Assembly (NCBI GenBank): GCA_049678285.1
Contig: JBAUDW010000071.1
Span: forward strand, 294-64,293
Direction: 5' to 3'
Length of the DNA stretch: 64,000 nucleotides
DNA from: Phycisphaerae bacterium
GTDB lineage: Bacteria; Planctomycetota; Phycisphaerae; FEN-1346
Positions 5,433 to 54,692 of this stretch are shown here, one piece after another. Every line of letters starts with the position of its first letter. Position 1 is the first letter of the stretch. The notes beneath the pieces were generated by a model that worked only from the letters and a program-made list of their open reading frames with translations, did no database searches and was not told the DNA's origin. The position numbers were made by a program, and so were the translations under genes.

Positions 5433-5451
5433 GGGTATTCCCTCCTTCAGT

Positions 5452-9149: not shown

Positions 9150-9172
9150 TCTTTTTGGAAGTTTGTAAAAGG

Positions 9173-10003: not shown

Positions 10004-10132
10004 CCGCACGGCCGCTTGAACAAAGGTGCTGCAACAGAAACTACACAGGATCGGAATGAACGCCACAACGAGGGCAGTACTCGGCCTTGTGGACCTGGCC
10101 ATTATCTTCATCCTCTAAGGAGGGAGAGTATT

Positions 10133-11278
10133 ATGATGTGCCGACAGGGAATTATCCTGGTAATCGCGGTGACCTTCCTGGCCAGCCTGGCCGGGACGGG
10201 GCAGGCCGTGACGGTCCCCCTGACGGACCCCACTTACATCCCGCACGATGATGTGCTGGCCTGGAACTGGCAGATCCTCGAGTTGAGCGGCGCCCTTGCA
10301 GCCGTACCGCACAGTCCCAGCGGCAACACCGTATGGCTGCGGATGTTCACGGGCGGCAATACCAACGCCACACCCAACGCCTCCCCCGTCTTTACGCCGG
10401 TGAAACTGGGCAACACCGATCTGAACCCGACGCAGAGCGCCCAGTACTGGTTCGGCCTGCATTATGACAACCAGGATGTCGTCGATAATGTTCTGACTGC
10501 CGGCCAGGTGCTAGGCGTGATCCAGGGGCTGGACGGCCCGACCGCCGTGTGTCCGGTGTTCCTCTTCGACCAGAACCAGTCCGGGGGCGCTTTCGGCAAC
10601 CCCATCCCGGAGGGATGGCCGACCGACCCCACGGCCCCCAACTACCCCAAGGACGACGCCATCTGGCTGCGGGGCCGCGTGATCCTGGTTCCGCCGAGCG
10701 CGATTCCCGGCGGCCTCGGCGCCCTGAATGGCTTGACGGCGACCCAGGTGAACGCACTGATCGACCCCCTGGTCCAGCCGGCGGTGCCCGGCATTCCCAA
10801 CCCGCCCGGCCCGTACGACTACATGCCCTCCGTCGACCCGGTTTCAGGCGTCGTCACGTTCTATTACCGGGATACGGTGTTCAGCGATTTCCCGGATGCC
10901 GCCGGCAACGCTTCGCATCCCACCTGGACGAACAACTGGGCCTACGCGCCAGGACTGTACGATCCGACGCTCTTTCTGCCGCTGCCTCCGGACTATTTTT
11001 CTCCAGAGGCGCTGTTAGAGTTGCCGGTCGACAACAACGGGCAGGGCGCGTTCGCCGACTGGGGCGGCTACTTCCCCCGGTTGGACCTGAGCCTGTATTC
11101 GGATTACGCCTTCTTCGTTGAACTCCAGTCGCGCTACAACAACGACGGGTTCGAAGAGTTGTACATCGTGGGCGGCCTGCCCCGGCGGCAGCCCATTCCC
11201 GAGCCGGTGACGATGGCCGGCCTTCTGCTCGGTATCGGCGGGCTGGTGACGTACGTGCGGAAGCGCCGGACAGCCTGA
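10133..11278 (+). CDS. PEP-CTERM sorting-domain protein (exosortase substrate) 1
   Basis: Signal peptide MMCRQGIILVIAVTFLASLAGTGQA. The C-terminus is IPEPVTMAGLLLGIGGLVTYVRKRRTA, i.e. PEP motif, TM helix and basic tail. AAGGAGGG lies upstream of the ATG. Confidence 0.85.
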   Translation: MMCRQGIILVIAVTFLASLAGTGQAVTVPLTDPTYIPHDDVLAWNWQILELSGALAAVPHSPSGNTVWLRMFTGGNTNATPNASPVFTPVKLGNTDLNPTQSAQYWFGLHYDNQDVVDNVLTAGQVLGVIQGLDGPTAVCPVFLFDQNQSGGAFGNPIPEGWPTDPTAPNYPKDDAIWLRGRVILVPPSAIPGGLGALNGLTATQVNALIDPLVQPAVPGIPNPPGPYDYMPSVDPVSGVVTFYYRDTVFSDFPDAAGNASHPTWTNNWAYAPGLYDPTLFLPLPPDYFSPEALLELPVDNNGQGAFADWGGYFPRLDLSLYSDYAFFVELQSRYNNDGFEELYIVGGLPRRQPIPEPVTMAGLLLGIGGLVTYVRKRRTA

Positions 11279-11464
11279 CTGGCGCTCAGCAGCAAGAAAA
11301 GGAGGTGGGTTGAACAGAAGAGCGCCAAACACTACGACGCCTGTCCAGGTCAGATGACGGCTGCCGACTGATCAGGACAGGGGGAAGGATTGGGACCTGT
11401 GCGGTGGCCGAAAAGCGGTTTCCGAGGGGTAAGTCGGATCCGAAACTATTTAGGAGATCGAATC

Positions 11465-12436
11465 ATGAGGTACTGCAAATTGCTTTTGATGTGCGGCATG
11501 GTGCTCGCCTTGAGCAGCCCGGTGTGGGCGCTTTCCACAACCATTCCGTTCCAGACGGCCTACGTCGGGCCGGTATCATGGCACTTCTCCGACTGGGATG
11601 AGGGGCGCGTGTACACGGGGTTGCTCGCGGACAACCAAACGCCGGTTACGGTAGGCCAAGTCTATGCGCCGGGCGACCTTCAGTCTATTGCTCCCAAAGG
11701 GCCTGCAGGGGTCGGGGATGCCTGGGGTATCATGCGCGTTGAAACCATTTACAACGCGACGTTGACCGGTCCCAACTCCATGACCATCGGCAGCACGCTA
11801 CTGTATGGTTATGGCGACAGTGGGACAGAACTCGCGGGCATTTTCTACGGCCGGCAAGATGACCAGATCATCTTCAACGCGGATGGGTCGCAGACCATCT
11901 ACTCGGACCCATTGGGTTACTTCGGTGACCGAGTCGACCTGTACATTCAGCCGGTCGGAACGGCGGCTAACTGGGATACGGGTATGGCTGGTCCGGGCGC
12001 GTCTGGAGCGGTGGGCGTATACCCCGGTATCGGTGACGATCCTGATTCCACGTTGGTTCTGACCGGTTACATCACGCCGGGCTTCTTGAATGGCGGTCTT
12101 GACGGCGTGTTTTCGAACTTCACGCCGGCTGGCAATACGGGCGAAGGCACATACGGACTCTACCTCACATGGGATGGCGGAACGGATCTGAATCGGTTCG
12201 GCTCCCCGGCCTGGCCGGGCATTTTCCCGTTCTTTGGCGGGCCGGGTGCTCCATTCGATGCCGATGCTCGTCTCAAGGGCACGATCTCGCCCACCATTTA
12301 CCCGTTAGCCGACCCGTGGCTGGTGAACACGTCCGATCCGGCGTTCATGTATGTCGCCGTTCCCGAGCCTGTGACGATGGCCGGCATGCTCCTGGGTATC
12401 GGTTGCCTGGGCAGTTACCTCCGCAAGCGTCGTTAA
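11465..12436 (+). CDS. PEP-CTERM sorting-domain protein (exosortase substrate) 2
   Basis: Signal peptide MRYCKLLLMCGMVLALSSPVWA. C-terminal VPEPVTMAGMLLGIGCLGSYLRKRR. Its passenger region is unrelated to that of protein 1. Confidence 0.85.
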   Translation: MRYCKLLLMCGMVLALSSPVWALSTTIPFQTAYVGPVSWHFSDWDEGRVYTGLLADNQTPVTVGQVYAPGDLQSIAPKGPAGVGDAWGIMRVETIYNATLTGPNSMTIGSTLLYGYGDSGTELAGIFYGRQDDQIIFNADGSQTIYSDPLGYFGDRVDLYIQPVGTAANWDTGMAGPGASGAVGVYPGIGDDPDSTLVLTGYITPGFLNGGLDGVFSNFTPAGNTGEGTYGLYLTWDGGTDLNRFGSPAWPGIFPFFGGPGAPFDADARLKGTISPTIYPLADPWLVNTSDPAFMYVAVPEPVTMAGMLLGIGCLGSYLRKRR

Positions 12437-12488
12437 CCGCTTGCCTGAAGGGCCGTACCGCTGTATTCGGTTGTGCATAAAGGGCTGC

Positions 12489-12538
12489 TCGGGGCGTCCT
12501 GCGGCCGAAAGGCCGGGGAGTGCGCCCTCAGTCTTTTT
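12489..12538 (+). terminator. putative intrinsic terminator after the PEP-CTERM gene pair
   Basis: GC-rich imperfect hairpin GGGCGTCCTGCGGCC-GAAA-GGCCGGGGAGTGCGCCC with a GAAA tetraloop, followed by TCAGTCTTTTTG. Confidence 0.45.
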
Positions 12539-12726
12539 GCAGGGGGGCTGCCGCTGAGGCGGGGCAGGACCGTCGCTTCTCCTTCGGGACAGGAGGGGGT
12601 GCCGGCGCACGAGCGGCTCGGCACCCCATCTGGGGCGAAGCACCAGATCGTCTCTCCTGCCCCTGTGGTTCGGTATCCTCGTGGGAACGGGGGGCTCCCT
12701 TCGATCTCGCGGATCTGGCAAAGGGG

Positions 12727-12755
12727 TTACTACCGGGGCCTTTCCATGGTATGAT
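12727..12755 (+). promoter_or_regulatory. possible extended -10 promoter (TGGTATGAT) giving a near-leaderless transcript for the SDR gene
   Basis: TGgTATGAT at 12747-12755, 8 nt before the ATG at 12764, with a weak -35-like TTACTA 17 nt upstream. No SD is evident. Confidence 0.3.
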
Positions 12756-12763
12756 AGCACACG

Positions 12764-13636
12764 ATGAAAACCGCTTTAGTAACGGGCGCAAGTTCGGGCA
12801 TCGGAGCCGCCTGTGCTGTTGCGTTGGCGGACAAGGGATTCCGGGTGTGCCTGACCGCCAGGAGGGGGGATCGCCTTGAAAGGCTCGCCGCACAGATCAA
12901 CGCTCACCACGGACCTGACCGGGCGATGTACGTCGCCGGCGACGTGACCGACGAGGATGCTCGAAAAGAGACGTTGGGTTCCCTGCTGTCCCGATGGGGC
13001 CGCATCGATGTTCTCGTGAATAACGCAGGCATAGTCGTAGGTGGCGCGGTCGAAGAGTTGCCTCTCCCCTCCGTACGGAGGCAGTTCGAAGTGAATACCA
13101 TTGCCTGCCTCGCGTGGATGCAGAGCGTGGGCCCGATCATGCGCCAACAACGGTCAGGCCGGATCATCAACATGAGTTCAATATCGGGGTGTATCGCCTT
13201 CCCCTGTTCAGGGGCTTACGCGGCTGCCAAGTTTGCGCTCGAAGCCCTGAGCGATGCCGCTCGAGTCGAGTACAAGCCCTGGGGGGTGGATATCATCGTC
13301 ATTGAGCCTGGCTCGGTGGTGACGGAGATCTGGGAAAGGGGCCAGGTGCTGGCAGAGTCCTCTCTTCCGAATTGGGAATCGAGCCCCTTTAGAGGTCTCT
13401 ATGCAGCCGAGCGTGAACATGCTCGGCAAATGATGGAGGGCAGGGGCCCAGGTCCCGAGATCGTGGCACGCGTGGTATGCCGTGCAGCCACGACAAAGCG
13501 GCCCAAGGCCCGCTACCGAGTTTCGAGAGAGGCTTGGCTCTTGAGTATCCTGGCAATTATGCCAACGCATCTGAGGGACTGGGTCATCCGGCGTCTCTAT
13601 GGAGTTGGGCGCGATACCCGCGCAGAGGGCCCGTGA
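12764..13636 (+). CDS. SDR-family short-chain dehydrogenase/reductase
   Basis: TGASSGIGAA Rossmann motif, NNAG, and the S..YAAAK catalytic triad. Confidence 0.85.
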   Translation: MKTALVTGASSGIGAACAVALADKGFRVCLTARRGDRLERLAAQINAHHGPDRAMYVAGDVTDEDARKETLGSLLSRWGRIDVLVNNAGIVVGGAVEELPLPSVRRQFEVNTIACLAWMQSVGPIMRQQRSGRIINMSSISGCIAFPCSGAYAAAKFALEALSDAARVEYKPWGVDIIVIEPGSVVTEIWERGQVLAESSLPNWESSPFRGLYAAEREHARQMMEGRGPGPEIVARVVCRAATTKRPKARYRVSREAWLLSILAIMPTHLRDWVIRRLYGVGRDTRAEGP

Positions 13637-13655
13637 GGCAAGGTGTTCAGTCCCA

Positions 13656-14980
13656 CGAGATCACCCATTTTGAGATGGGGCCAAAGGAAAGACCTCCCAA
13701 GTGCCGAGTTTGCAGGTGGTTAGATGCACCAGGCACGGAAGGGAGGTCGTCATGCGAAAGCAAAGTCTTCTGATGAAAGTGTCGGCCCGTTTGGAGACGT
13801 TTCTGAAGCCAATTTTGGCGGAGGTGGACAAGGTTCGCCGGCGGTTCGTTCGGCAGGCTGTCACGGGGATTCTGACCAGCCGGTCGCTGGTGGTGACCGA
13901 GATGGCCCGCCGGATCCACGACGGCACCGCGGCGCTCGATTACACCGCCAAACGCCTCTGCCGCGAACTGGTGGCCGAGACGTGGCACCTGCCGACGCTC
14001 CAACAGCGCCACCTTGACGCGGTCGCCTCCTGGGTCGGCGAGGAGACACCCATCGCCGTGGACCTGACGGACCTGGCCAAGCCGCGTGGGCGGCAGTTCG
14101 AGTACCTGGCCCTCGTACGCGACGGCGACCAGGATCGACTGCAGCCCGGCTACTGGTGTCTGGAAGCCTACACGGCCGATGGCGAGGAACCGCTGCCGCT
14201 TGTTCTGCAGCCGTTCAGCGTCCAGGACCCGCGGACGCCGAGTCAGAACCTCGTCATCTTGGCGGCCCTGGAGCAGTTGCGTCAGACGTTTGCCAACCGC
14301 GGACTGTACCTCTTTGACCGCGGCTTCGATGCCGGAGAGATCCTCAACGCCTTGCTGGATAAAGGGATGCGCTTCCTGGTGCGGCTCCGCGGCGACCGCC
14401 ATCTGGTCCTGGACCATGGCGTCCGGTTGCCCGCTCGCGACATCGCCGATCGGCTGGCGACGGCGAACGTGGCATGGCGTTGGCGACCGGCCTCTTGCCG
14501 GCTCGATGCGCACTGGATCGGGTACCTGCCGGCCCGCCTGCCCGGACGCCCGGAGCCGCTGACGCTGGTCGTCGCCCTCTTCCCTGGACCGGACGGGGGG
14601 ATGATGATGCTCCTGACGAATCGGGCGGTCGCGTCCGCCCCACAGGCCGAGCACACGCTCCGGCTCTATGCCCACCGGTGGAAGGCCGAGGAGGGCATCC
14701 GGGTCCTGAAGCAGGAGGTCGGCCTGGAGGGGTTCCGCATCCGATGCCTGGAAGCCATCCGGCGTCTGGTCTTCCTCGCCCTTCTGGCGATCGCGTTCCT
14801 GGTGTCGATCAGCGAAAAGACCCTCAGCCTCGCCGAGCAGATCATCCGACGCGGTCAGCCGCTCCGCCGCGCCCGCGGCATGATCCTCTACCGCCTCGCT
14901 CGCGGCATACGCTATCTCTTCACACACCTATCCCCACCCAACCTCGCCGCACTCAGGAGATTCCAAAATGGGTGATCTCG
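13656..14980 (+). mobile_element. IS4-superfamily (IS701/IS4-like) insertion sequence with perfect 17-bp terminal inverted repeats
   Basis: CGAGATCACCCATTTTG at 13656-13672 is the exact reverse complement of CAAAATGGGTGATCTCG at 14964-14980. One transposase ORF lies between them, ending inside the right IR. No clean target-site duplication was recognised. Confidence 0.8.
13752..14975 (+). CDS. IS4-family DDE transposase
   Basis: GGGAGG SD, then ATG at 13752. It carries DLTDLAKP, FDRGFDAGE and LYAHRWKAEEGIRVLKQ (the Y-R-E-K signature of IS4-superfamily DDE transposases). Confidence 0.8.
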   Translation: MRKQSLLMKVSARLETFLKPILAEVDKVRRRFVRQAVTGILTSRSLVVTEMARRIHDGTAALDYTAKRLCRELVAETWHLPTLQQRHLDAVASWVGEETPIAVDLTDLAKPRGRQFEYLALVRDGDQDRLQPGYWCLEAYTADGEEPLPLVLQPFSVQDPRTPSQNLVILAALEQLRQTFANRGLYLFDRGFDAGEILNALLDKGMRFLVRLRGDRHLVLDHGVRLPARDIADRLATANVAWRWRPASCRLDAHWIGYLPARLPGRPEPLTLVVALFPGPDGGMMMLLTNRAVASAPQAEHTLRLYAHRWKAEEGIRVLKQEVGLEGFRIRCLEAIRRLVFLALLAIAFLVSISEKTLSLAEQIIRRGQPLRRARGMILYRLARGIRYLFTHLSPPNLAALRRFQNG

Positions 14981-15307
14981 AGGTTTAGTCCCCCCTGTTG
15001 CTCTTGGCGCGGAACCCCGTTGGGTTGTGTTTCTCTGAGGCGAGCGGACACAGGCATCAGGGAAAATCGCCCTTTTTCAGGGGGTGTTCTCGCTGGCCCC
15101 GCAATATGGTGGAAGGAGTCGCCTTGGTGTCGAACCACGGCCAGCCACGCCTATAACACGTTGTCACCAAATGGTTTACATCGAGTGTACCCCGCATCTG
15201 GTTGCCCACATCAGGAGACGGAGGATTTGACAAGGAGGGCAGTATGCGTAGTCTTAAGTTCAGCAAGAAGGCCTGTGGGGGGTTGCGGAGTACAAAGGAG
15301 GATTGCG

Positions 15308-16267
15308 ATGGTGTCACCCGTTCGATGTGGGACCGTATTGGATCGGCCTCGTGGTGTGGAAGTTGTCACCAAAGGGGGCGAGCAATCGCAACAGAAGGCC
15401 CGGGAAAGTCGACGCATGGCACTGCTCAAACGGATGGGCCTATTTGGCACGGACACCAAGGGGGCTGTCATTCGGCGAGCCATTTCAGTGGAAGACCTTG
15501 CCGCGGCCTATCGCTTGGTTCATGACGCTTTTGTCGAGAAGGGGTACATCCAACCTCAACCTGCAGGCCTGCGACTCCGCGTGACCGAAGCCCTGCCGCA
15601 GACCGCGACCTTCATCGCCGAGGCTGGCCCAAGGGTAGTGGGCGTTCAAAGTATCGCGGTGGACTCAGACGAGTTTGGCCTTCCTTCGGACGGGGCATTT
15701 CGCAGCGAGATCGATGCCCTTCGGATCGGCGGAAGAAGGGTATGTGAAGCCACGAATCAGGCGGTCGCAGCGGATTACAGGAAGACGGCCGTGCCGACCG
15801 AACTGATGCGCTGCATGTTCGCGCATGCCCTGGCCATCGGCTGCGATGAACTGATCACTGCGGTTAGCCCTGGGCACGCGCGGTTCTTCGGGCTCCTTGG
15901 GTTTGAACAGATAAGTTCCGTGCGCAGTTACTCCACCGAACTCGACGACCCCGTTGTGGTCATGCGCGTCAATGTTTACGATCTGGTCAAGTGGGCTGCG
16001 AGGGCACAGGAAGACCAGGACGACGGGGCGCTTTTCGTCAGGTCCCGGTGCTTGGAGGACAATCCGTACTGCCGGCAGGTAAAAAACTGGGCAGCGGAAG
16101 CGGCAAAAACTTTCGCCGATCCTGCGGCCCTGCACAGACTCTTCGTGGCTCAGGGCAATCTCCTGAGGAATTGCTCGGCGGAAGAGCTCGCGGCCATCTG
16201 CCGACAGTGGGGTTTTGAGGTCTTTGACCAGGTATGCGGCGCCGAGCAGGTGCTCGCGACCGTATAA
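15308..16267 (+). CDS. GNAT-fold acyltransferase, N-acyl amino acid synthase / autoinducer-synthase-like (exosortase-associated acyltransferase-like), paralog 1
   Basis: AAGGAGG SD, then ATG at 15308; the longer track ORF from 14474 is read-through across the IS. Conserved blocks are shared with paralog 2 (AAYRLVHDAFVEKGYIQP, RVCEATNQAVAADYRKTAVPTELMRCMFAHAL, ELITAVSPGHARFFGLLGFE). Confidence 0.55.
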   Translation: MVSPVRCGTVLDRPRGVEVVTKGGEQSQQKARESRRMALLKRMGLFGTDTKGAVIRRAISVEDLAAAYRLVHDAFVEKGYIQPQPAGLRLRVTEALPQTATFIAEAGPRVVGVQSIAVDSDEFGLPSDGAFRSEIDALRIGGRRVCEATNQAVAADYRKTAVPTELMRCMFAHALAIGCDELITAVSPGHARFFGLLGFEQISSVRSYSTELDDPVVVMRVNVYDLVKWAARAQEDQDDGALFVRSRCLEDNPYCRQVKNWAAEAAKTFADPAALHRLFVAQGNLLRNCSAEELAAICRQWGFEVFDQVCGAEQVLATV

Positions 16268-16391
16268 GACCTCTCCTGGACCCAGGTCTGTGGAGACATG
16301 GGAGGAGATTCTGCGGAACAGGTGATGGATCTGGCGCTCGCTTGAGTGCTGTGTCCACGGCTGCCGCACGAGAAGAGGGGAGGTCGTGAGA

Positions 16392-17366
16392 ATGGATCGG
16401 GGTGCGATTGTCAATCGGGGGGAGCGGCGAAGGCTGGCCGCCGACGAGGGCCCGGTTTCCCCCGCGGCCGAAAAGCGAGAGAAGCGCTTGGCGCTTCTGA
16501 TGCGGCTTGGCTTTTTTGGGTCCGATACCCGGTCCGCCGTCATCACGCGGGCCGTGACCGTGGACGAACTCGAGGCCGCCTATCGGCTCGCGCACGACTG
16601 CTTCGTGGAGCGAGGCTGTATCGAGCCGGCGCCGAGCGGCCTGCGGATGCGCTTGTGGGAGGCCCTTCCGGAGATGGCCACCTTTGTGGCCACGGTCGAC
16701 GGCCAGGTCGTCGGTGTGCAGAGCCTCGTGACGAACAGCCCCGGACTCGGCCTGCCCTCGGACGTGGCCTTCCGCGACGAGATCGATGTGCTGAGGATGG
16801 GTCCGTGGCCCACGCGCTCCGGCAGCGGTCGCATCATCTGCGAGGCCACCAACCAGGCCATTGCGCCGGCCTACCGCCACAGTGCCGTCGCCACCGAGTT
16901 GATGCGGTGCCTGTTCGCACACGCCCTGATGGTTGGGTGCGGCGAACTCATCACGGCCGTCAGTCCCGGCCACAGCAGGTTCTACGAGTTGCTCGGGTTC
17001 GAGACGATCAGCACCGTCTGCAGTGGCTCGGTCCACAGCGACGCGCCCGCCGTGCTCATGCGGGCGAACGTCACCGACCTGGTCGATCGCGCGTCCGAGG
17101 CCGACGACAATAGCGACGGCGCCACCCTCTTCATCAAGTGCCGGTGCCTTGCCAGCAATCCCTACCGCGAGAAGGTCCGTCAGTGGGATGCCGAGGCCCA
17201 GGCCGTCTTCGCCGACCCGGAGGGGCTCCGCCGTCTCTTCGTGGAGGCGGGCGGCTTGCTGAGCCGGTGCAGCGAGGAGGAGCGCGAGGCGGTCTGCCAG
17301 TCCTGGGGCGCCGACGTTTTCGCGGCGGTGTGCTGGGCTGGCGCGGCCGAAGTCGGCCGCGCGTAG
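16392..17366 (+). CDS. GNAT-fold acyltransferase, N-acyl amino acid synthase-like, paralog 2 (tandem duplicate, ~55% identical to paralog 1)
   Basis: GGGGAGG SD, then ATG at 16392. It is colinear with paralog 1 over the whole length (AAYRLAHDCFVERGCIEP, IICEATNQAIAPAYRHSAVATELMRCLFAHAL, ELITAVSPGHSRFYELLGFE). Confidence 0.55.
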   Translation: MDRGAIVNRGERRRLAADEGPVSPAAEKREKRLALLMRLGFFGSDTRSAVITRAVTVDELEAAYRLAHDCFVERGCIEPAPSGLRMRLWEALPEMATFVATVDGQVVGVQSLVTNSPGLGLPSDVAFRDEIDVLRMGPWPTRSGSGRIICEATNQAIAPAYRHSAVATELMRCLFAHALMVGCGELITAVSPGHSRFYELLGFETISTVCSGSVHSDAPAVLMRANVTDLVDRASEADDNSDGATLFIKCRCLASNPYREKVRQWDAEAQAVFADPEGLRRLFVEAGGLLSRCSEEEREAVCQSWGADVFAAVCWAGAAEVGRA

Positions 17367-17384
17367 AAGCCTGTTGCGGCAACG

Positions 17385-18923
17385 CTACTCCGCTGCTTCG
17401 GGCCTGGCCGAAGAACCGCGGGCCTCGTATTGCCGCGCTTCATCCAGGTACGCAAACTTCCGCTCATAGTCCGGGCTCATGCCGCTGCGGAAATCCTCGT
17501 AGGGCTCGCACCTGACCTCGACCGGCGCACCCGTGTAGCGGGCAAGAGCCTCGGCATATCGGTCGGCCAGAGAGGGCGCCGAGCGGATTCCCGGCACCAG
17601 TTGAACCCGCAGCAGGGCCCGTTGCGGCCCGGGCCGCAGTCGGAAGTTCCCCGTGGCTTGCCGCGCTAATTCTGGATCGGCGTACAGGGCTTCCTTGACT
17701 TCCTCGGGATACACGCGCCGGTCGCCCGCCTGGGCGCACTGGCCACGGCCGCAGACCATCAGGGTCGGGGTGGCGTCGAGTTCGCTGGCCGTCAGGCCGG
17801 CCCGGCGGGCCGCCTCTCGGAGGCCGTCGCTCGACTCCAGCCGCCGAACCTCATCGCCCGTCACGTAGCGGATGAGTGGAACCCGCCGCGCGCCGTCGAG
17901 CGTCGAGACCACGAGCTGGCTGTTGTCCAGCACCTCCACGAAGATCCACTCCGGATCGTAGGCGAAGATCATGGGTACGCAACGGGTCCCCGCCCCCAGG
18001 ATGGCCTCGCGCAGAGGCGCATCGCGGTGCAGCACGCGCCTCAGGGCGATCAGCGGACCCGTCTCCCAGAAGAGGTTCAGCCCCAGTTCTGCCACGCCCA
18101 TGCTCGAGAGGATCCGCCCGGTCTCAGGTCGGGCGAAGTTGATGCCCAGGAGGCCCTCCAGGTAGATTCGCGCGTTCTCGGCCAGCGGCTCCTCGCCCAC
18201 CACCACGTGGACCAGCCGCCGCTGCCAGTCCACCTTCTGGCGCTCGCCCAGTTCCACGAGGCACTTGATGAAGGCCGTCTCGCCGACGAGGACGATCTGC
18301 TCGTAATCCTCGCCGAAGGCCTTGACCAGGGCCACGACCATGTCCTCGCGGACGCTCGTCTCGGCCAGGGTGCAGGCCTGCGTATACACCTTCACCCCCA
18401 TGGGCAGGCAGTTGATGAGGAGGGTCGACTTGCTGCGGACGCCCAGGAAGAAGTCCAGCGCGTCGTCCACGCGGCGGACGGCCTCATCGGCGTTCTCCGC
18501 ATCATACATGCCGAACGCAAACTGGCCCGAGTGGCCCGACGACGTGAGGACCCAGGCGGGCTTGCCCAGGCGGCCGCCCCGGCACAGCGCTGCCAGCGGA
18601 AAACGTCCGAACGTGCCAGCCTTGTCCACCAGCGGCACGTACTGTCGGAACGCGTCGATGCTTGTGATCTTGGCTGGGTCCACGCCCGCCTCCGCCAAGA
18701 TGTCGCGATAGGCCGGGACCTCGCGCGCGGTCCGTTGGAAAGCGGCGATGATGGGGGGAACCGCGCTCGCGCCTAGCCCCAGGAGCCGCGGTTCGCTCTG
18801 CCGGCGGAGTTCATCGGCCGAGACCTCGCGCAAAGCCTCATCGGGTCTGACCGACGGCTGATGCTCCGCCGACGCCGGCGTTTTCTTTTCTGGTTTGATT
18901 CGCGGCATGTTGCGCCCTCGCAC
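17385..18923 (-). CDS. adenylate-forming enzyme of the PaaK / coenzyme F390 synthetase-like family (acyl-AMP/CoA ligase)
   Basis: The N-terminal block ..VPAYRDILAEAGVDPAKITSIDAFRQYVPLVDK.. is typical of the PaaK-like N-terminal domain, and the ~500-aa length fits. It is encoded convergently beside the N-acyl-amino-acid-synthase-like pair. Confidence 0.5.
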   Translation of the reverse strand: MRGRNMPRIKPEKKTPASAEHQPSVRPDEALREVSADELRRQSEPRLLGLGASAVPPIIAAFQRTAREVPAYRDILAEAGVDPAKITSIDAFRQYVPLVDKAGTFGRFPLAALCRGGRLGKPAWVLTSSGHSGQFAFGMYDAENADEAVRRVDDALDFFLGVRSKSTLLINCLPMGVKVYTQACTLAETSVREDMVVALVKAFGEDYEQIVLVGETAFIKCLVELGERQKVDWQRRLVHVVVGEEPLAENARIYLEGLLGINFARPETGRILSSMGVAELGLNLFWETGPLIALRRVLHRDAPLREAILGAGTRCVPMIFAYDPEWIFVEVLDNSQLVVSTLDGARRVPLIRYVTGDEVRRLESSDGLREAARRAGLTASELDATPTLMVCGRGQCAQAGDRRVYPEEVKEALYADPELARQATGNFRLRPGPQRALLRVQLVPGIRSAPSLADRYAEALARYTGAPVEVRCEPYEDFRSGMSPDYERKFAYLDEARQYEARGSSARPEAAE

Positions 18924-19105
18924 CTTAGGGGAAGGTGCTTGCCGCAGGTGCGCATGCTTAGGGGTGTTGAAACTCTGCCTCTGGTTGTGGAATCGGTAGT
19001 GCTCCGTTGGCTACTTCGTCATCGCCTGGCACTTGACTCCAGCAATTCAGCCGGGATTCCCCAGATGACCTCCGCCCGGCCCACTGCCGGGCGATCTGAC
19101 ACGCA

Positions 19106-20698
19106 TTATACTGCCCCCTGGGCTGAAGCGCCGCTCGCGGCGGTCGGCCGCGGATCGTGCTTCCGCCTCTCCCGGACGACGTGGGTCGTAATTACCTCCG
19201 ACGCCGCGGGGTCCGACGCGGGGCAATCCAGGACCATGAGCAGGGCCTGCGCCAGTTCCGCGATGCTCAGAGGGAAGGTCAGGTAGGCGGCAAGACCCAG
19301 TTCGCGGCATCGGGCGACGTCGCCTCGCCGGCCCGCGTGGGTCACGAGGACGATCGCGGGCCGGCCGTAATCGGGTTTGCCCGTGATCGTCGCCGCAAGG
19401 TCGAAGACGTTGCCGCCGGGCGTCGTCGCGTCGAGGAGCACGAACCGCCGCGGCCGCCCATCGGCCCGCGCCTGCTGCAGCGCCGCAAAGGCGGCTCCGG
19501 CATCCGCCACCGCCACGCTCTCCATTCTAAGGCGTCCGAGCATCGTGACAAGCGATTCTCGGATGTCGCTCTGGCCGTTCACCACAAGGGCACGCAGGCG
19601 CGAGAGCCGCGACAGGTCGCACGGCGCAAGCGGGGCCTCCGCCTCCTGCCGCAAACCAAGCCGGATGGTGAAGTGGAACGTGCTCCCCCGGCCGGACTCG
19701 CTTTCGACCGTGATGCGGCCGCCCATGAGTGCCACTAGTTGCGATGCGATGGCCAATCCGATGCCGCAGCCCCCGTGGGTCCGCGTGGCCGAGCCGTCCA
19801 CCTGCCGGAACGCCTCGAAGACCTTGGCTTGGGCCTCCTTCGGTATCCCGATGCCCGTGTCGGTGACCGTGAACTGCACCTCGGCCTTCGCGGCATCCTC
19901 GGACACCAGGGCGGCATGCACCCGGACCTCGCCCGTCTCGGTGAACTTGATGGCGTTGCTCAGGAGCGTGCCGAGCACCTGCCGCAAGCGGCCGGGGTCG
20001 CCTACGACCTCGTCCGGCACATCGGGGTCCGCGTCGCACCGCAGGGTCAGTTGCTTGCGGTCGGCCTGGGGCCGGAAGCGGACGGTGACGTCGCCGATGC
20101 AGTCCCGCAGGCGGAAGCCCTGCGGGTCGAGGCTCAGGCGCCGCGCGTGAATCCGCGACAGGTCGAGCAGGTCGTTGAGAAGGTCCAGAAGCGAATGGCC
20201 GGCGGCCCGGACCTTCTCGAGGTACCGCCGCTGCTTCGGCGCCGGGTCCGTCTCCAGGAGAAGGTCGGTCATGCCCAGGATCGTGTTCATGGGCGTGCGG
20301 ACCTCGTGGCTGATGTTCGACAGGAACTCGTTCCGCAGGGCCTTGGCGCTGTGGGCCATGACGGCCAGTTCCCGCGCCCGCTTGCGGGCGCTTTTAAGGT
20401 CCTGGGTGATAACGGCCAGGCGGGAGCGGGCCTCATCCGCCTCGGCGCGGGTCCGCTTCAGGCGCCGGCGAAGCCACAGGGCCAGCCCGATGGCTGCCGC
20501 CAGGAGAATCAGGCAGGTGGGTACGAGCCAACTCGGCCCCACACCAGGGCCGGCGTCCAGGGCGAGCCGCAGGCCCGCCGGGTCCTCGCTGACGCGCGCA
20601 GACAACGACGCCCCGCCCGCCGCCCCCAGCGGCCAGGGGCGGGCTCGTCCCGACGCGATCATCGGAAGTGGCGACATCCTGGGGAGCTCCTTTGGCAT
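19106..20698 (-). CDS. hybrid sensor histidine kinase with a C-terminal receiver-like domain
   Basis: One TM segment (SWLVPTCLILLAAAIGLALWL). HisKA H-box FLSNISHEVRTPMNTILGMTDLL. HATPase_c blocks (LRQVLGTLLSNAIKFT, DTGIGIP, GGCGIGLAIASQLVALMGG). A C-terminal ~120-aa REC-like domain. Confidence 0.8.
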   Translation of the reverse strand: MPKELPRMSPLPMIASGRARPWPLGAAGGASLSARVSEDPAGLRLALDAGPGVGPSWLVPTCLILLAAAIGLALWLRRRLKRTRAEADEARSRLAVITQDLKSARKRARELAVMAHSAKALRNEFLSNISHEVRTPMNTILGMTDLLLETDPAPKQRRYLEKVRAAGHSLLDLLNDLLDLSRIHARRLSLDPQGFRLRDCIGDVTVRFRPQADRKQLTLRCDADPDVPDEVVGDPGRLRQVLGTLLSNAIKFTETGEVRVHAALVSEDAAKAEVQFTVTDTGIGIPKEAQAKVFEAFRQVDGSATRTHGGCGIGLAIASQLVALMGGRITVESESGRGSTFHFTIRLGLRQEAEAPLAPCDLSRLSRLRALVVNGQSDIRESLVTMLGRLRMESVAVADAGAAFAALQQARADGRPRRFVLLDATTPGGNVFDLAATITGKPDYGRPAIVLVTHAGRRGDVARCRELGLAAYLTFPLSIAELAQALLMVLDCPASDPAASEVITTHVVRERRKHDPRPTAASGASAQGAV

Positions 20699-20904: not shown

Positions 20905-21489
20905 GAGTGCGGCAGAGATCGCTGCAGCCTACTCGCCGAAGTGCGGGGGAGCGGCGGCAGACCCCGGTCGGGACTGGGGGACAGAGATCACCGGCCGCTC
21001 CCGTGGCCGGCTCATGCCTCTGTTACAGGCGCATTACCTCGTCGCCCGCTATTTTTGCTGGACATGCCGCGGCGAGGCACCGATATTCCGGGGGCAGGGC
21101 GCGAGTTCGGAGTACTACCAGGCGAAGGTTGCCGAGGATCGGCTGCGCGGCACAGGCCCGCAACTGGCGTTCGCGTTTGAAAGCGTGGACGGCAACAACC
21201 AGATGGTCGAACGGCTTTTAGACAAGGGGAAGACCGCAGCCTTGTTCTATGTCGAAACCAGTGCGACCGCCTACGGGTACTTCATTGCCACAACCCATCG
21301 GTTCCGAAAACCGTTGCCAATTTCGTGTTCAAGGCCCGCAATCTTGCCGATATAGGGCACTAGGCTGTCTCCCTGCGTAGGAGAGGGTTGCATCCTGGCG
21401 ATTTTAGGCTATACTATTCGATGTCACGGACCGTAAGAACGGCCCCAGGTCGCATTCCGCGATCAGCGGCTCTTGTTGGAGGGCGTAGA

Positions 21490-22455
21490 ATGACAACAGC
21501 CAACCGTTGCCTGGGTGTTCTGATCGGCTGCTTGCTGGGGGCCGCGGCTATGGGCTGCGGCGGCAACAACGAGCGTCTGAAGGCGTTCCTCCAGGAACCG
21601 CGTTCGCCCGTTTCGGGGAGCGAATACCGCGTCCTTCCGCCGGATGTCATCCTCATTAACTCCATCTATGTGTCGGACATCAACAACTTCAAGGTGGAAG
21701 TGCGTCCGGACGGGAAGATCAACCTGCCCTTGCTCGGGGAGGTCACCGTAGCCGGCAACACGCCGCGGGAGATCGAGGCGGTCCTCAAGGCCAGGTCACG
21801 CGAATTTTACGAGGAAGTCGATGCGACGGTCCAAGTCACCGAGTTCCGGTCCCAGAAGATTTACGTGTTCGGCCAAGTGGCTCGCCCGGGCCCCCTGCCT
21901 TGGACCGGCACCGACACGGTCATTGACGTCCTGGCCCAGGTGCAGCCCACGCCGCTGGCCTGGCCGGAGCGGATCCGGGTGATTCGCGGGAAACCTCCGA
22001 TCCGGGGAGGGTACTTGCGGCCCTCCAAGGAAGACCAGGAAGACCAGGCCGAGAAGAGCGATCCTGAGGAAGACGCGCCGGCGCCGTCGACCGAGGAGTT
22101 CCCCGTGGCCAAGGAGGGCGAGGACAAGCAGGAGAAGCCCTTGACGGTCGAGGAAGCCACGAAGATGGCGGCAGAGGCCGCCAGGGCAGCGGAGGCCGGC
22201 GACGGGTCGGATGCCCACATGATGAAGGTTAACATGATGAACATGGTTGAGAAGGGGGATTTCTCACAGAATGTGCTCCTGAAGGCCGGCGACGTCGTTT
22301 ATGTCCCGCCGAACCCGCTGGCGGCCTTCGGACTGGCCATGCAGCAGGTGTTGTTGGGGATTCAGCCGGCGGCATCGACGATTCAAGCGCCGGCCAGCGC
22401 GGCATATAGCGTGAAGTCGGTTCAGAACTTTGGTAGCTCGAAGCAGATACCTTAG
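21490..22455 (+). CDS. polysaccharide export outer-membrane lipoprotein (Wza/EpsE-like, Poly_export + SLBB)
   Basis: Lipobox LGAAAMGC after a signal peptide. PPDVILINSIYVSD, GKINLPLLGEVTVAGNT and TVIDVLAQV blocks are typical of Wza-family exporters. An acidic low-complexity insert is present. Confidence 0.75.
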   Translation: MTTANRCLGVLIGCLLGAAAMGCGGNNERLKAFLQEPRSPVSGSEYRVLPPDVILINSIYVSDINNFKVEVRPDGKINLPLLGEVTVAGNTPREIEAVLKARSREFYEEVDATVQVTEFRSQKIYVFGQVARPGPLPWTGTDTVIDVLAQVQPTPLAWPERIRVIRGKPPIRGGYLRPSKEDQEDQAEKSDPEEDAPAPSTEEFPVAKEGEDKQEKPLTVEEATKMAAEAARAAEAGDGSDAHMMKVNMMNMVEKGDFSQNVLLKAGDVVYVPPNPLAAFGLAMQQVLLGIQPAASTIQAPASAAYSVKSVQNFGSSKQIP

Positions 22456-22595
22456 CGGGAGGCGTTCGATAGCCGAAATGACCGTGCAAGCAACTCCGCG
22501 AGGCTTCCCGCGGTAGTCCTCCGGCGCCGGAGACCGTCAGCACGCCGGCTGGTGGCACACACGAAATCCCCGGTGAGCAGCCGCTAGCGAGAAAA

Positions 22596-24401
22596 ATGAT
22601 GGCCGAAGAGACACAGAAAAAGACACCGCGGGACCTCCTGAGGGCGGTTTTTCGCCACCGCCTGCTCTTTATGTCGAGCGCGGCGCTGTTTGCGTTTGCC
22701 ATCCTCGTAGGCGCCTGCTGGTGGCCGCTGAAGTATACGGCCATCGCCAAGCTCGCGCGCCGGTCCGACCCGGCGTCCGAGGACCTCGTTCGCGGCAGGA
22801 GCGAATCGTTCGATGCCCTGAAGATGACCCTTCAGCACGAACTTGTCGGCACTAATGCCGTCGAGGCCGCCGCGGAGGAACTGGAGAAAAAGCGGCTCCT
22901 TCCGGCGCTGCCGCGCGGCCAGGACGGCAAACTGACGACCGAGGGCAGGATGTTGCGCCAGGAAGTCGTGCGCAATCTCTCCGCCGACCTGAAGGTCATC
23001 TTTGAGGTGCGATCCAAGGAAGTGGACCTGGTCTCCGTTTCCTTCACGGACCCGGACCCGCGACTGGCGCAGGAACTGCCGAACACACTGATCACCAACT
23101 ACATCGACCGCATCAGCGAACAGATCGTCACCAACCTGACGTCCAGCCGCGACTTCCTCCAGACCAAGGTCGACGAGGCCAACACGCGTCTCGCGGAACT
23201 CACGCGGAAGCGGATCGACTTCGAAACCAAGTATGCGGGCATGTTGCCGGACAACCCGGGGGCGCTCCAGCAGGAAATTCAGCGCATCGCGACCGACACG
23301 GACACCGTCCGGCGCCAGCAGGCGCTGGCCAAGCAGAAACTGGACCAGATCAGGGTCATCCTGGGGCGCTCCGCGGCCCCCGAGGACGACGGGTCCGCTG
23401 CGGCGCCCGAGGGCGTCGGGTCCGCTACGGAGTCCGCCCTGTCCGCCGAGCGAGAATACAAAGACGCAACGCAGGATTTGGCCCGCCTCCAGGACCAGCA
23501 GCAGCAATACCAGCGGTCGCTCGACGAGTCGCGGACGCTGCTGCACATGACGGAAAAGCACCCGCGCGTCGTGGCGCTGCGGAAGCAGATCGACGCCCTC
23601 GACAAGCGGATCACGGAATTCAAGGTCCTCCGGTTGCCCGACCTCGAGAAGCGCCTGCGCGAAAGTCGGGCCCGCTTGCGGGCCGCGTACGGCGATTCCA
23701 TCCTCGACCCCTCCCGTCAGCGCAACCAGGAAATGCTTCAGGCCAATCTTACGATCCAGGAAACGACAGCCCAGTCCGAGTATCAGATGGCGACCAACGA
23801 ACTGGAACGCCTCCAGGCCCGCCAAGTCGCCCTCCAGAACATCATGAACAACTACGGTCCCGTGCGGCAGGAGTACCTGGGAATGATCAAGGAGGTGACC
23901 GACCAGCAGGCCGAGGTCGACAGGTGGCAGAAGCGGCGGACGGAAGTGCAGATGGCCCTGGCCGCCGAGGCCGCCAAGCACCGGACCCACCTGACCCAGG
24001 TGGAGTTGGCGCAGGAGCAGTTCAAGCCGTCGTCGCCCAAACTTCTTTACGTGCTGGCACTGGCCATCGTGGGCGGGCTGGCGTTCGGCGGGGGTCTGGT
24101 GTTCTTGACCAACACGGTGGACCGGTCCATCACGACCACCGAGGAGGCGACGGCCCATTTCGGCCTGCCGGTGCTGGGCAGCATAGGCGAGATTATGACC
24201 GCCCCGCAGAGGGCGCGCCGGAAGATGATCCGCTGGGGGCTGGGTCCCGTGGCGGCGGTGGTGGTGGCGCTGGCGATAGGGGCGGCGGCCCTGAACATCG
24301 CCCTGTGGCTGAACAGCCGCGAGCAGTACAGCCAGTGGCGGGCCTCACCCGTGCGGTTCGTGGTGTCCAAGATCGGCGACTCGCTGGCCGGCAAGATCTG
24401 A
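22596..24401 (+). CDS. polysaccharide chain-length determinant protein (Wzz/GumC/EpsF-like, PCP family)
   Basis: N-terminal TM (LLFMSSAALFAFAILVGACWW), a long coiled-coil periplasmic region, and a second C-terminal TM (LLYVLALAIVGGLAFGGGLVFL). Confidence 0.8.
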   Translation: MMAEETQKKTPRDLLRAVFRHRLLFMSSAALFAFAILVGACWWPLKYTAIAKLARRSDPASEDLVRGRSESFDALKMTLQHELVGTNAVEAAAEELEKKRLLPALPRGQDGKLTTEGRMLRQEVVRNLSADLKVIFEVRSKEVDLVSVSFTDPDPRLAQELPNTLITNYIDRISEQIVTNLTSSRDFLQTKVDEANTRLAELTRKRIDFETKYAGMLPDNPGALQQEIQRIATDTDTVRRQQALAKQKLDQIRVILGRSAAPEDDGSAAAPEGVGSATESALSAEREYKDATQDLARLQDQQQQYQRSLDESRTLLHMTEKHPRVVALRKQIDALDKRITEFKVLRLPDLEKRLRESRARLRAAYGDSILDPSRQRNQEMLQANLTIQETTAQSEYQMATNELERLQARQVALQNIMNNYGPVRQEYLGMIKEVTDQQAEVDRWQKRRTEVQMALAAEAAKHRTHLTQVELAQEQFKPSSPKLLYVLALAIVGGLAFGGGLVFLTNTVDRSITTTEEATAHFGLPVLGSIGEIMTAPQRARRKMIRWGLGPVAAVVVALAIGAAALNIALWLNSREQYSQWRASPVRFVVSKIGDSLAGKI

Positions 24402-24409
24402 GATGAATT

Positions 24410-25276
24410 ATGTATCTTGATTTCTACAATTTGCGTGAGTTCCCGTTCGCCATCACGTGCGACGACCGCTTCTTCTACGAAAGCACCGTCCACGCCGAGA
24501 CCCTGGCCAACATGATGTACACCGTCCAGCAGCGCAAGGGCATGGTCCTGGTGACCGGCGAGGTGGGGGCGGGAAAGACCTTCGTCGGCAACATGCTCGG
24601 TTCGCGCCTGGGCGTCGGATGCCAGACCGTCCTGATCAGCAATCCGCCGCAATCCAGCAAGCAACTCCTCAGCACCCTGGCACGGCGCCTGGGCATGAAC
24701 GTGCGCGCCAGCACCGACAAGGCGAGCCTCGTGGAAGAACTGGAGCGGTACCTGGTGGGCCTTAACAGCCGCGGCCGTCTTGTGGCGCTTATCTTCGACG
24801 AGGCCCAGGACCTGTCGCCGGCCAGCCTCGAGGAACTCCGCCTGCTGTGGAACTGGGAGCAGGGGGGCCGGCGCCTCATCCAGATTGTCCTCATCGGCCA
24901 GCCGGAACTGAGGCAGCGGTTGCTGGAACCGAAGTGGGAGGCGCTGCGCCAGCGTGTTGTTCTAAGTTACCACCTTCAGCATCTTTCGCCAGCGGACACC
25001 CCTTCCTATATCGCTCACCGCCTCCGCGTGGCCGGCGGCGACGCGTGTTCGGCCCAGTTCACGGCTTCGGCCTTGACCGACATCCATGCCGCCACCGACG
25101 GCATTCCCAGGCTGATCAACATTCTCTGCGACAATGCCCTGCTGGTGGGCTACGCCAAGGAGGTCCACTGCATCGACAGTCCGATCATCGCCGAGGTTGT
25201 CCGTGACATGACTTGTTGGGGCCTTCGCACGCCGTCCCCGGTACCGCAAGCCGCGCCCGCCAGCGGGCAGGAGTAG
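24410..25276 (+). CDS. ExeA/GspA-like AAA ATPase (PEP-CTERM-locus putative secretion ATPase)
   Basis: MYLDFYNLREFPF N-terminus, Walker A GEVGAGKT, Walker B LIFDEAQ. Confidence 0.8.
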   Translation: MYLDFYNLREFPFAITCDDRFFYESTVHAETLANMMYTVQQRKGMVLVTGEVGAGKTFVGNMLGSRLGVGCQTVLISNPPQSSKQLLSTLARRLGMNVRASTDKASLVEELERYLVGLNSRGRLVALIFDEAQDLSPASLEELRLLWNWEQGGRRLIQIVLIGQPELRQRLLEPKWEALRQRVVLSYHLQHLSPADTPSYIAHRLRVAGGDACSAQFTASALTDIHAATDGIPRLINILCDNALLVGYAKEVHCIDSPIIAEVVRDMTCWGLRTPSPVPQAAPASGQE

Positions 25277-25279
25277 ACT

Positions 25280-26128
25280 GTGGCCAACGTGTGGGATGCG
25301 ATGAAGAAGCACCAAGCCGAGCAGGCGGCAGCAGCGCCGCTGGCGACCGCCACGTCGCCGCAGGACGCGCCGGGTACGGCCGCGCCGGCGCAGGAGACGG
25401 TGCCGGCCACCGCGGCCGCAACGCAGGTGCCCGCGCCGGTCGGCGGCCCCGCGACTCTCGACGGCTATGCCCCGGAACTGTGCGCCCACTACGAGCGCGG
25501 CGGGGCGATAGCCGAAGACTTCCGCGGACTTCGCACCAGCCTGCTGGCCCGGTACTCCGACGAACGGTTCTGCGTTCTCGTCACGTCGGCCGAGAAGGGT
25601 GAAGGCAAAACGGTGGCCTGCCTCAACCTGGCGTTGGTGCTGGCCGAACGCCAGGAACGCCGCACCGTGGTCGTCGATTGCGACCTCCGCGCCCGCCGCG
25701 TGGCCAAACTGATGCGCATAGCCAACGCCCCCGGCGTTGCCGACCTGCTACGCGGCGCGGCCCGCGTCGAGGACGTCCTGCGCAAGACAGCCTACCCAAA
25801 CCTGTTTGTGATCCCCGCGGGCGAGGCCGGCAAGGGCGAGGTGGGCGACCTGCTGCACCGCCCGGAACTGCAAGAGACTTTCAACGCCCTGCGTCGGCAG
25901 TACGACTACGTGCTCCTCGACACGCCGCCCGTGGTCGTCGCCCCCGACGCCTGCATGCTGGGCCCCGCCGTGACCGACGCACTCGTAATTGTTCGTATGT
26001 ACAAGACACGCCGCGAGACGGTCGATAGCGCCATCAGCCTCCTGCACGGGGCCAACATCAAGCCGGTGGGCGTGGTGCTGACGCATCGCCGATACTACAT
26101 ACCCAAGGTGCTCTACTACCACACGTAG
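25280..26128 (+). CDS. BY-kinase-type tyrosine autokinase ATPase domain protein (EpsG/CapB/Wzc C-terminal-domain-like)
   Basis: P-loop SAEKGEGKT, Walker B VVDCDLR, DYVLLDTPPV, and a C-terminal tyrosine cluster RRYYIPKVLYYHT. Confidence 0.8.
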   Translation: MANVWDAMKKHQAEQAAAAPLATATSPQDAPGTAAPAQETVPATAAATQVPAPVGGPATLDGYAPELCAHYERGGAIAEDFRGLRTSLLARYSDERFCVLVTSAEKGEGKTVACLNLALVLAERQERRTVVVDCDLRARRVAKLMRIANAPGVADLLRGAARVEDVLRKTAYPNLFVIPAGEAGKGEVGDLLHRPELQETFNALRRQYDYVLLDTPPVVVAPDACMLGPAVTDALVIVRMYKTRRETVDSAISLLHGANIKPVGVVLTHRRYYIPKVLYYHT

Positions 26129-54651: not shown

Positions 54652-54692
54652 ACCTCAGCAGGCGGCGCTACGAGGCGCCGGGGGGTGGATGC

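Follow-up and report, generated by a model that had tools for sequence, protein, structure and literature searches.

What two tandem acyltransferase genes, an adenylating enzyme and a membrane histidine kinase do together in a polysaccharide locus of a Phycisphaerae bacterium is the question addressed here. The four genes, named A, B, C and D, lie in a window of 64,000 nucleotides, by which we mean the whole stretch of DNA that was analysed (GenBank assembly GCA_049678285.1, contig JBAUDW010000071.1, positions 294 to 64,293 of the forward strand). The initial annotation had described A and B as tandem paralogs resembling N-acyl amino acid synthases (NAS), C as a PaaK-like enzyme and D as a hybrid sensor kinase, and had proposed a diffusible acyl-amino-acid signal with D as its cognate sensor. 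All four genes were found at the positions given there (Table 1), and A and B were colinear paralogs with 54% identity over 313 residues (E = 3e-119), which excludes chance. What that annotation had overlooked were the conserved partners, namely the near-obligate pairing of NAS with C across phyla and an adjacent family of PEP-CTERM cargo proteins. We propose, with a probability of roughly one half, that the cassette encodes a lipoamino-acid pathway serving the exosortase system, in which C would be the ATP-dependent second step.

Pairing of NAS and C across phyla

A profile of C was used to scan one genome per species, which gave 80 loci, and a reciprocal scan of metagenome contigs anchored on FeeM-type NAS gave 53 loci. 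C was present in 38 of the 53 NAS-anchored loci and was absent from only three that had more than 1.5 kb of downstream sequence (38 of 41 informative loci), and it usually lay convergent to the NAS at a distance of less than 150 bp. Seen from C, 57 species loci offered 3 kb or more of sequence on either side, and 48 of them had a NAS within 3 kb, at a median gap of 59 bp. The window has the same arrangement, with C and D convergent to A and B and 18 bp between the stop codons of B and C. Three long contigs with close homologs of A all carried a C homolog convergent to the NAS in a similar exopolysaccharide (EPS) locus, and one C was often accompanied by two to four NAS copies. We regard it as established that NAS and C form a conserved unit within exosortase loci.

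The NAS in this unit was of two types, FeeM-type in 21 of the 48 loci and TIGR03694-type in 27. FeeM-type NAS stood beside C in Planctomycetota, Verrucomicrobiota and a few other phyla, and a different GNAT took this place in 37 loci of Pseudomonadota, Desulfobacterota, Omnitrophota, Acidobacteriota and some Planctomycetia. This GNAT exceeded the TIGR03694 cut-off in all seven cases tested, with 150 to 209 bits for the neighbours of C in Proteobacteria, which means that the NAS partner switches from the FeeM type to TIGR03694 while C stays. Undibacterium pigrum DSM 19792 and Thiocapsa roseopersicina DSM 217 (loci L031 and L078) are examples in which TIGR03694, C and the cargo gene occur together. 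One locus (L002) had an apparent operon on the minus strand (12384-17015) of a hybrid kinase, an Amidohydro_2 gene, C and a ThiF gene with gaps of 10-33 bp, flanked by a pair of FeeM-type genes and a FeeM remnant of 180 aa. Its ThiF gene is reminiscent of the oxazolone cyclases TyzB and OxzB.

In 36 of 82 loci, an open reading frame (ORF) with a PEP-CTERM tail was located no further than 3 kb from C. When the tail was left aside, the core of PEP-CTERM protein 2 of the window (11390-12436) had homologs beside C in 32 loci, often at no more than 100 bp, and these loci spanned several phyla including Alpha- and Betaproteobacteria, Desulfobacterota and Verrucomicrobiota. The core contained no known domain and had no other Pfam match. 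For PEP-CTERM protein 1 (10016-11278), no homolog was found beside C in other loci.

About 16-20 loci, including L004, L010, L011, L035, L048, L050, L052 and L054, also had genes for an FtsX/MacB-type ABC permease, an ATPase, an HlyD-type protein and a LolA-like protein next to NAS and C, and the window contained none of these genes. Their recurrence suggests export of a lipidic product.

A and B are FeeM-type enzymes with additional domains

Both paralogs matched the Pfam family FeeM (PF21926), A with 125.9 bits and B with 101.7 bits against a cut-off of 27, and their sole sequence match in the Protein Data Bank (PDB) was FeeM itself (2G0B, E = 4e-8). The AlphaFold model of A, built on 36 homologs (pLDDT 91), showed a FeeM-like GNAT fold that was nearer to FeeM than to other GNATs, followed by the CoA-dependent acyl-homoserine lactone (AHL) synthases RpaI and BjaI. 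The proposed likeness to N-acyl amino acid synthases and autoinducer synthases was thereby borne out, and for the LuxI-type enzymes it is a likeness of fold only, with no match to Pfam Autoind_synth and Pfam matches confined to FeeM and generic GNAT models. An aminoglycoside-type or generic acetyltransferase was ruled out, as FeeM and the AHL synthases scored far above AAC(6') and an aminoglycoside acetyltransferase ranked only 51st. Sequence and model together establish A and B as FeeM-fold N-acyltransferases.

The residues expected of such an enzyme are in place, with E147, H190 and F193 invariant in the alignment of 36 homologs. E147 aligned to the Glu of the FeeM strand LAEVVQF and to the Glu of AEISRLAV in TIGR03694, and the strand Glu of FeeM reportedly has a role described by Van Wagoner and Clardy in 2006. 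The GNAT loop for the CoA pyrophosphate (Q/R-x-x-G-x-G/A) was not evident in A and B, as in FeeM. H190 and F193 aligned to FeeM His145 and Phe148, which are contacts for pantetheine and the carrier protein (summarised in PMC11685415).

Compared with FeeM, the family of A and B has two additional conserved parts, for neither of which a search with the model of A found a structural match: a helix at the N-terminus (residues 23-42, RRMALLxRxGLFG) and, at the C-terminus, a domain of about 95 residues (223-318) that consists of helices only. A, B and C had no signal peptide or transmembrane (TM) segment and are predicted to be soluble. A and B also weakly matched the N-terminus of PRK14852, a 989-residue model labelled as a hypothetical protein by NCBI, which we take to include a ThiF-like domain.

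The suggestion that A and B are exosortase-linked acyltransferases held for their surroundings, an exosortase/PEP-CTERM locus, but not for the known family. No hit to TIGR03694 was obtained at E <= 0.01 (model cut-off 111.95 bits), which rules out membership. Profile-profile comparison of the cores indicated remote homology, with a hhalign probability of 73.6%, E = 2.9e-5, 18% identity and the Glu strand aligned.

In a neighbour-joining tree, A grouped with P0005, P0009, P0010 and P0014, and B with P0035, P0017 and P0026. An 8-residue insertion before the catalytic strand was common to B and these three homologs, a clade separate from the A type. A-type and B-type genes were found on one contig elsewhere (P0005 with P0035, P0006 with P0037), and 13 of the 53 NAS-anchored loci contained tandem NAS copies. 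Because of the separate clades, the co-occurrence and the recurrent tandem copies, we consider the duplication to be old and both copies to have been kept. Two products of different specificity, as had been suggested from the duplication, are consistent with this history but are not proven by it.

C belongs to a discrete PaaK-fold family

C had no Pfam match, it scored 22.2 bits against PaaK (TIGR02155, cut-off 646.3), and a single-sequence search of the PDB found nothing. The AlphaFold model of C, built on 32 homologs (pLDDT 83), was used for a Foldseek search, and the nearest structures were PaaK1, BT_0428, AjiA1, NatL2, ClxA and 2-hydroxyisobutyryl-CoA ligase (HCL), at E values from 1e-18 to 1e-15 and target-normalised TM-scores of about 0.7; 2y27 was matched at E = 2e-18 with a target-normalised TM-score of 0.70. 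The profile of the C family found BT_0428 in the PDB at E = 7e-8, and the motifs of C and BT_0428 could be aligned: VPxYR in both, SSGHSG in place of SSGTTG, GEEP in place of GAEP, and PLIRYATGD in place of PLIRYRTRD. Other invariant motifs of the family were GRG (392-394) and ERKFxY (487-492), the latter being a candidate for the site of the C-terminal catalytic Lys. On model, profile and motifs, the earlier description of C as a PaaK-like adenylating enzyme stands, and we take its identity as an adenylate-forming enzyme to be established from sequence and structure prediction.

However, C is not a true PaaK, which was ruled out by the HMM score and by a genomic context without a paa operon: the neighbours of C were NAS, kinase, PEP-CTERM and EPS genes. 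A HMMER scan of 1.84 billion representative sequences with the C profile returned 527 clusters at E <= 1e-30, and relaxing the threshold to E <= 1e-3 gave 1826. Judged by sequence and model, the C family is thus a discrete group and not the bulk of the PaaK superfamily, with a PaaK-like fold and chemistry, and it comprises about 500-1200 clusters at 50% identity for which neither Pfam nor NCBIfam has a model. Paralogs of C were not found in related loci.

Two fusion proteins contained a C domain. In P0246, a singleton, it was fused to a seven-TM membrane domain (HisKA_7TM), and in P0305 (740 aa; L142, 2744-4966) to a TIGR03694 domain (147.8 bits). A CHASE8-HAMP kinase gene lies just upstream of the P0305 fusion.

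Proposed pathway and its alternatives

We infer the substrates, the step order and the final product of the cassette from its observed folds, motifs, paralogy, pairing and context. A and B would be cytoplasmic NAS that transfer a pantetheine-linked acyl group, supplied by primary metabolism as acyl-CoA or as a thioester of the acyl carrier protein (acyl-ACP), to the amino group of a free amino acid, and the paralogs probably differ in their preference for acceptor or chain. C would most likely adenylate the free carboxylate of the resulting N-acyl amino acid, which could then be joined to a further acceptor or cyclised. By analogy, this step would parallel that of the unrelated ThiF-type enzymes TyzB and OxzB, which act on N-acyl-tyrosine. 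The product lipid would serve the PEP-CTERM/exosortase matrix system together with its one family of PEP-CTERM cargo.

Two published results bear on the step given to C. NAS genes alone, both TIGR03694 enzymes and FeeM, lead to N-acyl amides in E. coli (PMC9762135), so C would not be needed for donor supply and more probably activates the carboxylate of the product. The pair TyzA/TyzB provides a precedent, in which a FeeM-like NAS is combined with ATP-dependent carboxylate activation of its product (PMC10404671).

Several points weigh against this pathway. The step is assigned to C by analogy only, and since L002 carries both a ThiF gene and C, C does not simply stand in for a cyclase of the TyzB type. 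The usual substrates of PaaK-type enzymes are small aryl or alkyl acids, which are often converted to CoA thioesters, and a role of C in making the donor fits this equally well. The P-loop of C (SSGHSGxF) departs from the PaaK consensus SSGTTG(K/N)P, and its putative catalytic Lys489 falls in a low-confidence tail of the model. The P0305 fusion could be a frameshift artefact at an ORF overlap, and as a singleton from one 6.4-kb metagenome contig it is weak evidence of coupling. Finally, the insertion element upstream of A may affect the expression of A.

The main rival, which we hold to be a tentative possibility, places C upstream of A and B. C would convert a particular carboxylic acid (aryl, branched, hydroxy or otherwise unusual) to an acyl-AMP or acyl-CoA donor, from which the two synthases would make an N-acyl amino acid of an unusual kind. 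This is modelled on the CoA-dependent LuxI-type synthases RpaI and BjaI, which use dedicated CoA esters and which are the structural neighbours of A after FeeM, and the nearest structures of C are CoA ligases and enzymes that adenylate aryl acids (PaaK1, BT_0428, HCL, NatL2, ClxA). One C with two to four NAS would fit one donor and several acceptors, and TyzA, also a FeeM-like NAS, uses acyl-CoA (PMC10404671). A motif scan of all six frames, which is a weak test, found no ACP gene or ACP-like motif in the window. But TIGR03694-type NAS work in E. coli without a partner, as described above, and A and B lack the pyrophosphate loop of GNATs and keep the FeeM-type His and Phe contacts to the carrier protein, which points to acyl-ACP from fatty-acid synthesis as the donor.

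The fate of the product could also be a different one. NAS and C might make a lipoamino acid, activated or bearing an amine, which after export would be the acceptor onto which the exosortase transfers PEP-CTERM cargo. The cleaved cargo, above all the cargo family encoded beside the pair, would then have a C-terminal lipid anchor, by analogy with the lipid attachment of archaeosortase and rhombosortase. We consider this unlikely; if true, the long-sought acceptor of exosortase transpeptidation would be found, and the 15-year-old link between NAS and exosortases would be explained.

Rather improbable, in our judgement, is the proposal of a circuit resembling quorum sensing, in which A and B would produce a diffusible N-acyl amino acid signal and D would be its membrane sensor. 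D contained HisKA (71.6 bits) and HATPase_c (103.3 bits) domains, and its Response_reg match (26.1 bits) was below the cut-off of 30.2. The LuxI/FeeM fold of A and B speaks for a signal, as does the biofilm composition that is altered by planctomycete N-acyl tyrosines, the stieleriacines (PMC7293339). C and D share a strand, with D 182 bp upstream; in L002 and L085 an ortholog of D seems to form an operon with C, and the kinase gene ahead of the P0305 fusion is a different one. When any histidine kinase at up to 3 kb from C was counted, 9 of 38 close relatives had one, but only 6 of 82 species loci, and these kinases belonged to different families, with orthologs of D beside C only in L002 and L085. 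These counts rule out the kinase as a core partner. The only TM segment of D spans residues 56-78, with about 55 residues ahead of it, and no ligand-binding or sensor domain was recognisable. The receiver (approximately 371-486) keeps the equivalents of the phospho-Asp and Thr, but, relative to a CheY reference, it has NG in place of the acidic pair and Phe in place of the conserved Lys; the same pattern was seen in the orthologs of L002 and L085, and the domain may be a pseudo-receiver. Neither a LuxR-type nor any other dedicated receptor was conserved, and a signal circuit leaves the conserved partners, C and the PEP-CTERM cargo family, unexplained. Because the adjacency of the kinase is lineage-specific, the claim of a diffusible signal with a cognate sensor is weak, and D would instead be a lineage-specific regulator of the C operon, outside the core.

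Least probable of all is direct N-acylation of the neighbouring PEP-CTERM cargo by A and B, for which C would provide the activated acyl group: proteins can be substrates of GNAT-fold enzymes, and one cargo family adjoins the pair in the 32 loci mentioned above, but A, B and C are predicted to be soluble, the exported cargo has a signal peptide and exposes only a short Arg-rich C-terminal tail to the cytoplasm, which makes the reaction topologically awkward, and the closest characterised relatives (FeeM, TyzA and TIGR03694 NAS) acylate free amino acids.

Locus, gene order and insertion elements

The window is a PEP-CTERM/exosortase polysaccharide locus and is GC-rich (about 65%). It contains the set of an XrtA-like EPS locus, with exosortase, PEP-CTERM cargo, export, chain-length, ATPase and kinase genes (Table 1), and also an stp1 glycosyltransferase, a flippase, two Asn-synthase-like genes, a deacetylase and a Wzy_C/GT4 protein. 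The exosortase remained below the cut-offs of the subtypes compared (XrtD 208 of 400 bits, XrtW 164 of 425, XrtA 116 of 208), and it probably represents an unclassified Phycisphaerae subtype. All scores of the genes at 21388-26128 were below the curated cut-offs, so these genes are relatives and not certified members of the XrtA type, and because most equivalog scores were below cut-off, the EPS locus of the window is regarded as a divergent, Phycisphaerae version.

Table 1 Features of the window (positions are those of the 64,000-nt stretch)
Feature	Position	Strand	Remarks
PrsT-like TPR protein	843-5468	-	
Exosortase with fused EpsI domain	5452-7140	-	8TM_EpsH 108.9 bits (cut-off 105.55); EpsI_fam 60.2 (cut-off 42.8)
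Bac_transf-type sugar transferase	9155-10003		Assigned via homology to genes of L001, L002 and L004
PEP-CTERM protein 1	10016-11278	+	TIGR02595 22.3 bits (cut-off 16), residues 394-418
PEP-CTERM protein 2	11390-12436	+	PEP_CTERM tail; member of the cargo family accompanying NAS/C
SDR (short-chain dehydrogenase/reductase) oxidoreductase	12764-13636	+	adh_short 175 bits; lineage-specific neighbour
IS701/IS4-family insertion sequence (IS)	13653-14983	+	Transposase 13701-14975; DDE_Tnp_1; between SDR gene and A
NAS paralog A	15308-16267	+	319 aa; FeeM-type GNAT with N-terminal helix and C-terminal helical domain
NAS paralog B	16386-17366	+	326 aa; PF21926 101.7 bits; 8-residue insertion before catalytic strand
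C	17385-18923	-	PaaK-fold adenylate-forming enzyme (by sequence and model), family without model; conserved NAS partner
D	19106-20698	-	Single-TM hybrid histidine kinase, degenerate receiver; putative lineage-specific regulator
XrtA-type polysaccharide export, chain-length determinant, ATPase and Tyr autokinase genes	21388-26128	+	Best NCBIfam matches TIGR03027, TIGR03007, TIGR03015 and TIGR03018

The same gene order, including the insertion element, was present in three independent assemblies (L139-L141), namely GCA_049645985.1 and two assemblies from read sets, and a protein with 100% identity to C has been annotated in a Phycisphaerae metagenome-assembled genome. A strong Shine-Dalgarno sequence, AAAGGAGG, is located 7 nt upstream of the ATG of A. 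Scans for promoters and terminators gave nothing decisive: a single promoter-like site lay directly before D, and terminator-like sites did not exceed the chance level. An ortholog of the SDR gene (59% identity) was in the equivalent position in L002 only.

An IS4 insertion had been described immediately before the paralogs. The element itself was confirmed by 20-nt terminal inverted repeats (13653-13672 and 14964-14983, 95% complementary), but its family is better given as IS701/IS4 and it ends 325 bp upstream of A. The IS701 and IS4 NCBIfam matches of its transposase were all below cut-off, IS701 being the best (72 of 150 bits), and the flanking sequence showed no clear target-site duplication. 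Two IS3-family transposase genes in opposite orientation (7348-8331, minus strand; 29582-30673, plus strand) flank about 21 kb that include the cassette. A composite transposon formed by them was ruled out, as there was no detectable DNA identity between the two.

Other genes of the EPS locus were also recorded. Two FemAB-like GNATs (42355-43362, minus; 58758-59810, plus), an ATP-grasp enzyme (52283-53650, plus) and a PGA_cap protein (57308-58477, minus) could take part in amino-acid or peptide decoration of the polymer. An 801-aa protein with VanZ-like domains is encoded at 26276-28681 (minus). Long ORFs without a Pfam match and with high GC content at third codon positions (GC3) were found at 35625-37163 (plus), 54642-56072 (plus) and 62908-63987 (minus); another long ORF without a Pfam match (28566-29612, plus) failed the GC3 filter and is a weaker gene candidate.

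Novelty and comparison with known systems

A link between NAS and PEP-CTERM/exosortase loci has already been published, by Craig et al. 2011 as that work is cited in PMC7293339 and PMC11072679, and it is also encoded in the name of TIGR03694 ("PEP-CTERM/exosortase system-associated acyltransferase"). In a methanotroph, disruption of a gene of the exosortase-linked NAS kind abolishes a polysaccharide band (PMC11072679). In the literature that was searched, which did not cover Craig et al. 2011, we found no report that links a PaaK-like gene to PEP-CTERM. Three features seem to be novel: the FeeM-type NAS of the PVC (Planctomycetes-Verrucomicrobia-Chlamydiae) group, which is specific to it and has additional domains, the near-obligate PaaK-fold partner family and the accompanying cargo family.

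The analysis shows that a distinct FeeM-type NAS takes the position of the TIGR03694 NAS in Planctomycetota and Verrucomicrobiota, that both NAS types are tied to one ATP-dependent PaaK-fold family, and that one PEP-CTERM cargo family travels with the pair. Therefore, heterologous expression of NAS alone has probably reported an intermediate and not the end product. The minimal three-gene set of NAS, C and cargo is now defined, and the pairing provides a handle on the role of these lipids, while nothing already established is overturned.

The cassette differs from LuxI/LuxR quorum sensing by AHL in that A and B have no Autoind_synth match, no LuxR-type receptor is present and the adjacent kinase is not conserved. 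With PaaK, BT_0428, NatL2, AjiA1, ClxA and HCL, C shares the two-domain ANL fold of the short PaaK subtype and the motifs VPxYR, P-loop, GxEP and PLIRYxTxD, but the identity is only 14-18%, the P-loop of C has its own form and no paa operon surrounds it.

FeeM, an N-acyl-tyrosine synthase from soil environmental DNA, is without the extra N-terminal helix and the C-terminal domain of A and B, and it works with FeeL, whereas A and B have no ACP gene nearby in the window and are set in an exosortase locus. In the stieleriacine cluster of Stieleria maiorica, several NAS paralogs are accompanied by EPS/PEP-CTERM genes, by efflux components and by a regulator, and a TcdA/ThiF-like enzyme, a methyltransferase and a desaturase have been proposed for it by a bioinformatic assignment (PMC7293339). 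Among the ORFs scanned in the window there was no ThiF-type cyclase and no nitroreductase-type (NTR) desaturase, only the NAS. TyzABC and OxzAB, of M. tuberculosis and Pseudoalteromonas rubra, likewise combine a FeeM-like NAS with a subsequent ATP-dependent enzyme that activates a carboxylate (PMC10404671), but that enzyme is of the ThiF/E1 type, whereas C has the PaaK/ANL fold and is part of an exosortase/EPS locus.

The TIGR03694 NAS, the family of Craig, Cherry and Brady 2011, are like A and B in their PEP-CTERM/exosortase context, in the PaaK-like neighbour C, in the remote homology of the GNAT core and in frequent tandem duplication, and they differ in that A and B do not match the model, share only about 18% identity and have different terminal extensions. 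In Planctomycetota and Verrucomicrobiota, it is the FeeM-type enzyme that replaces the TIGR03694 NAS.

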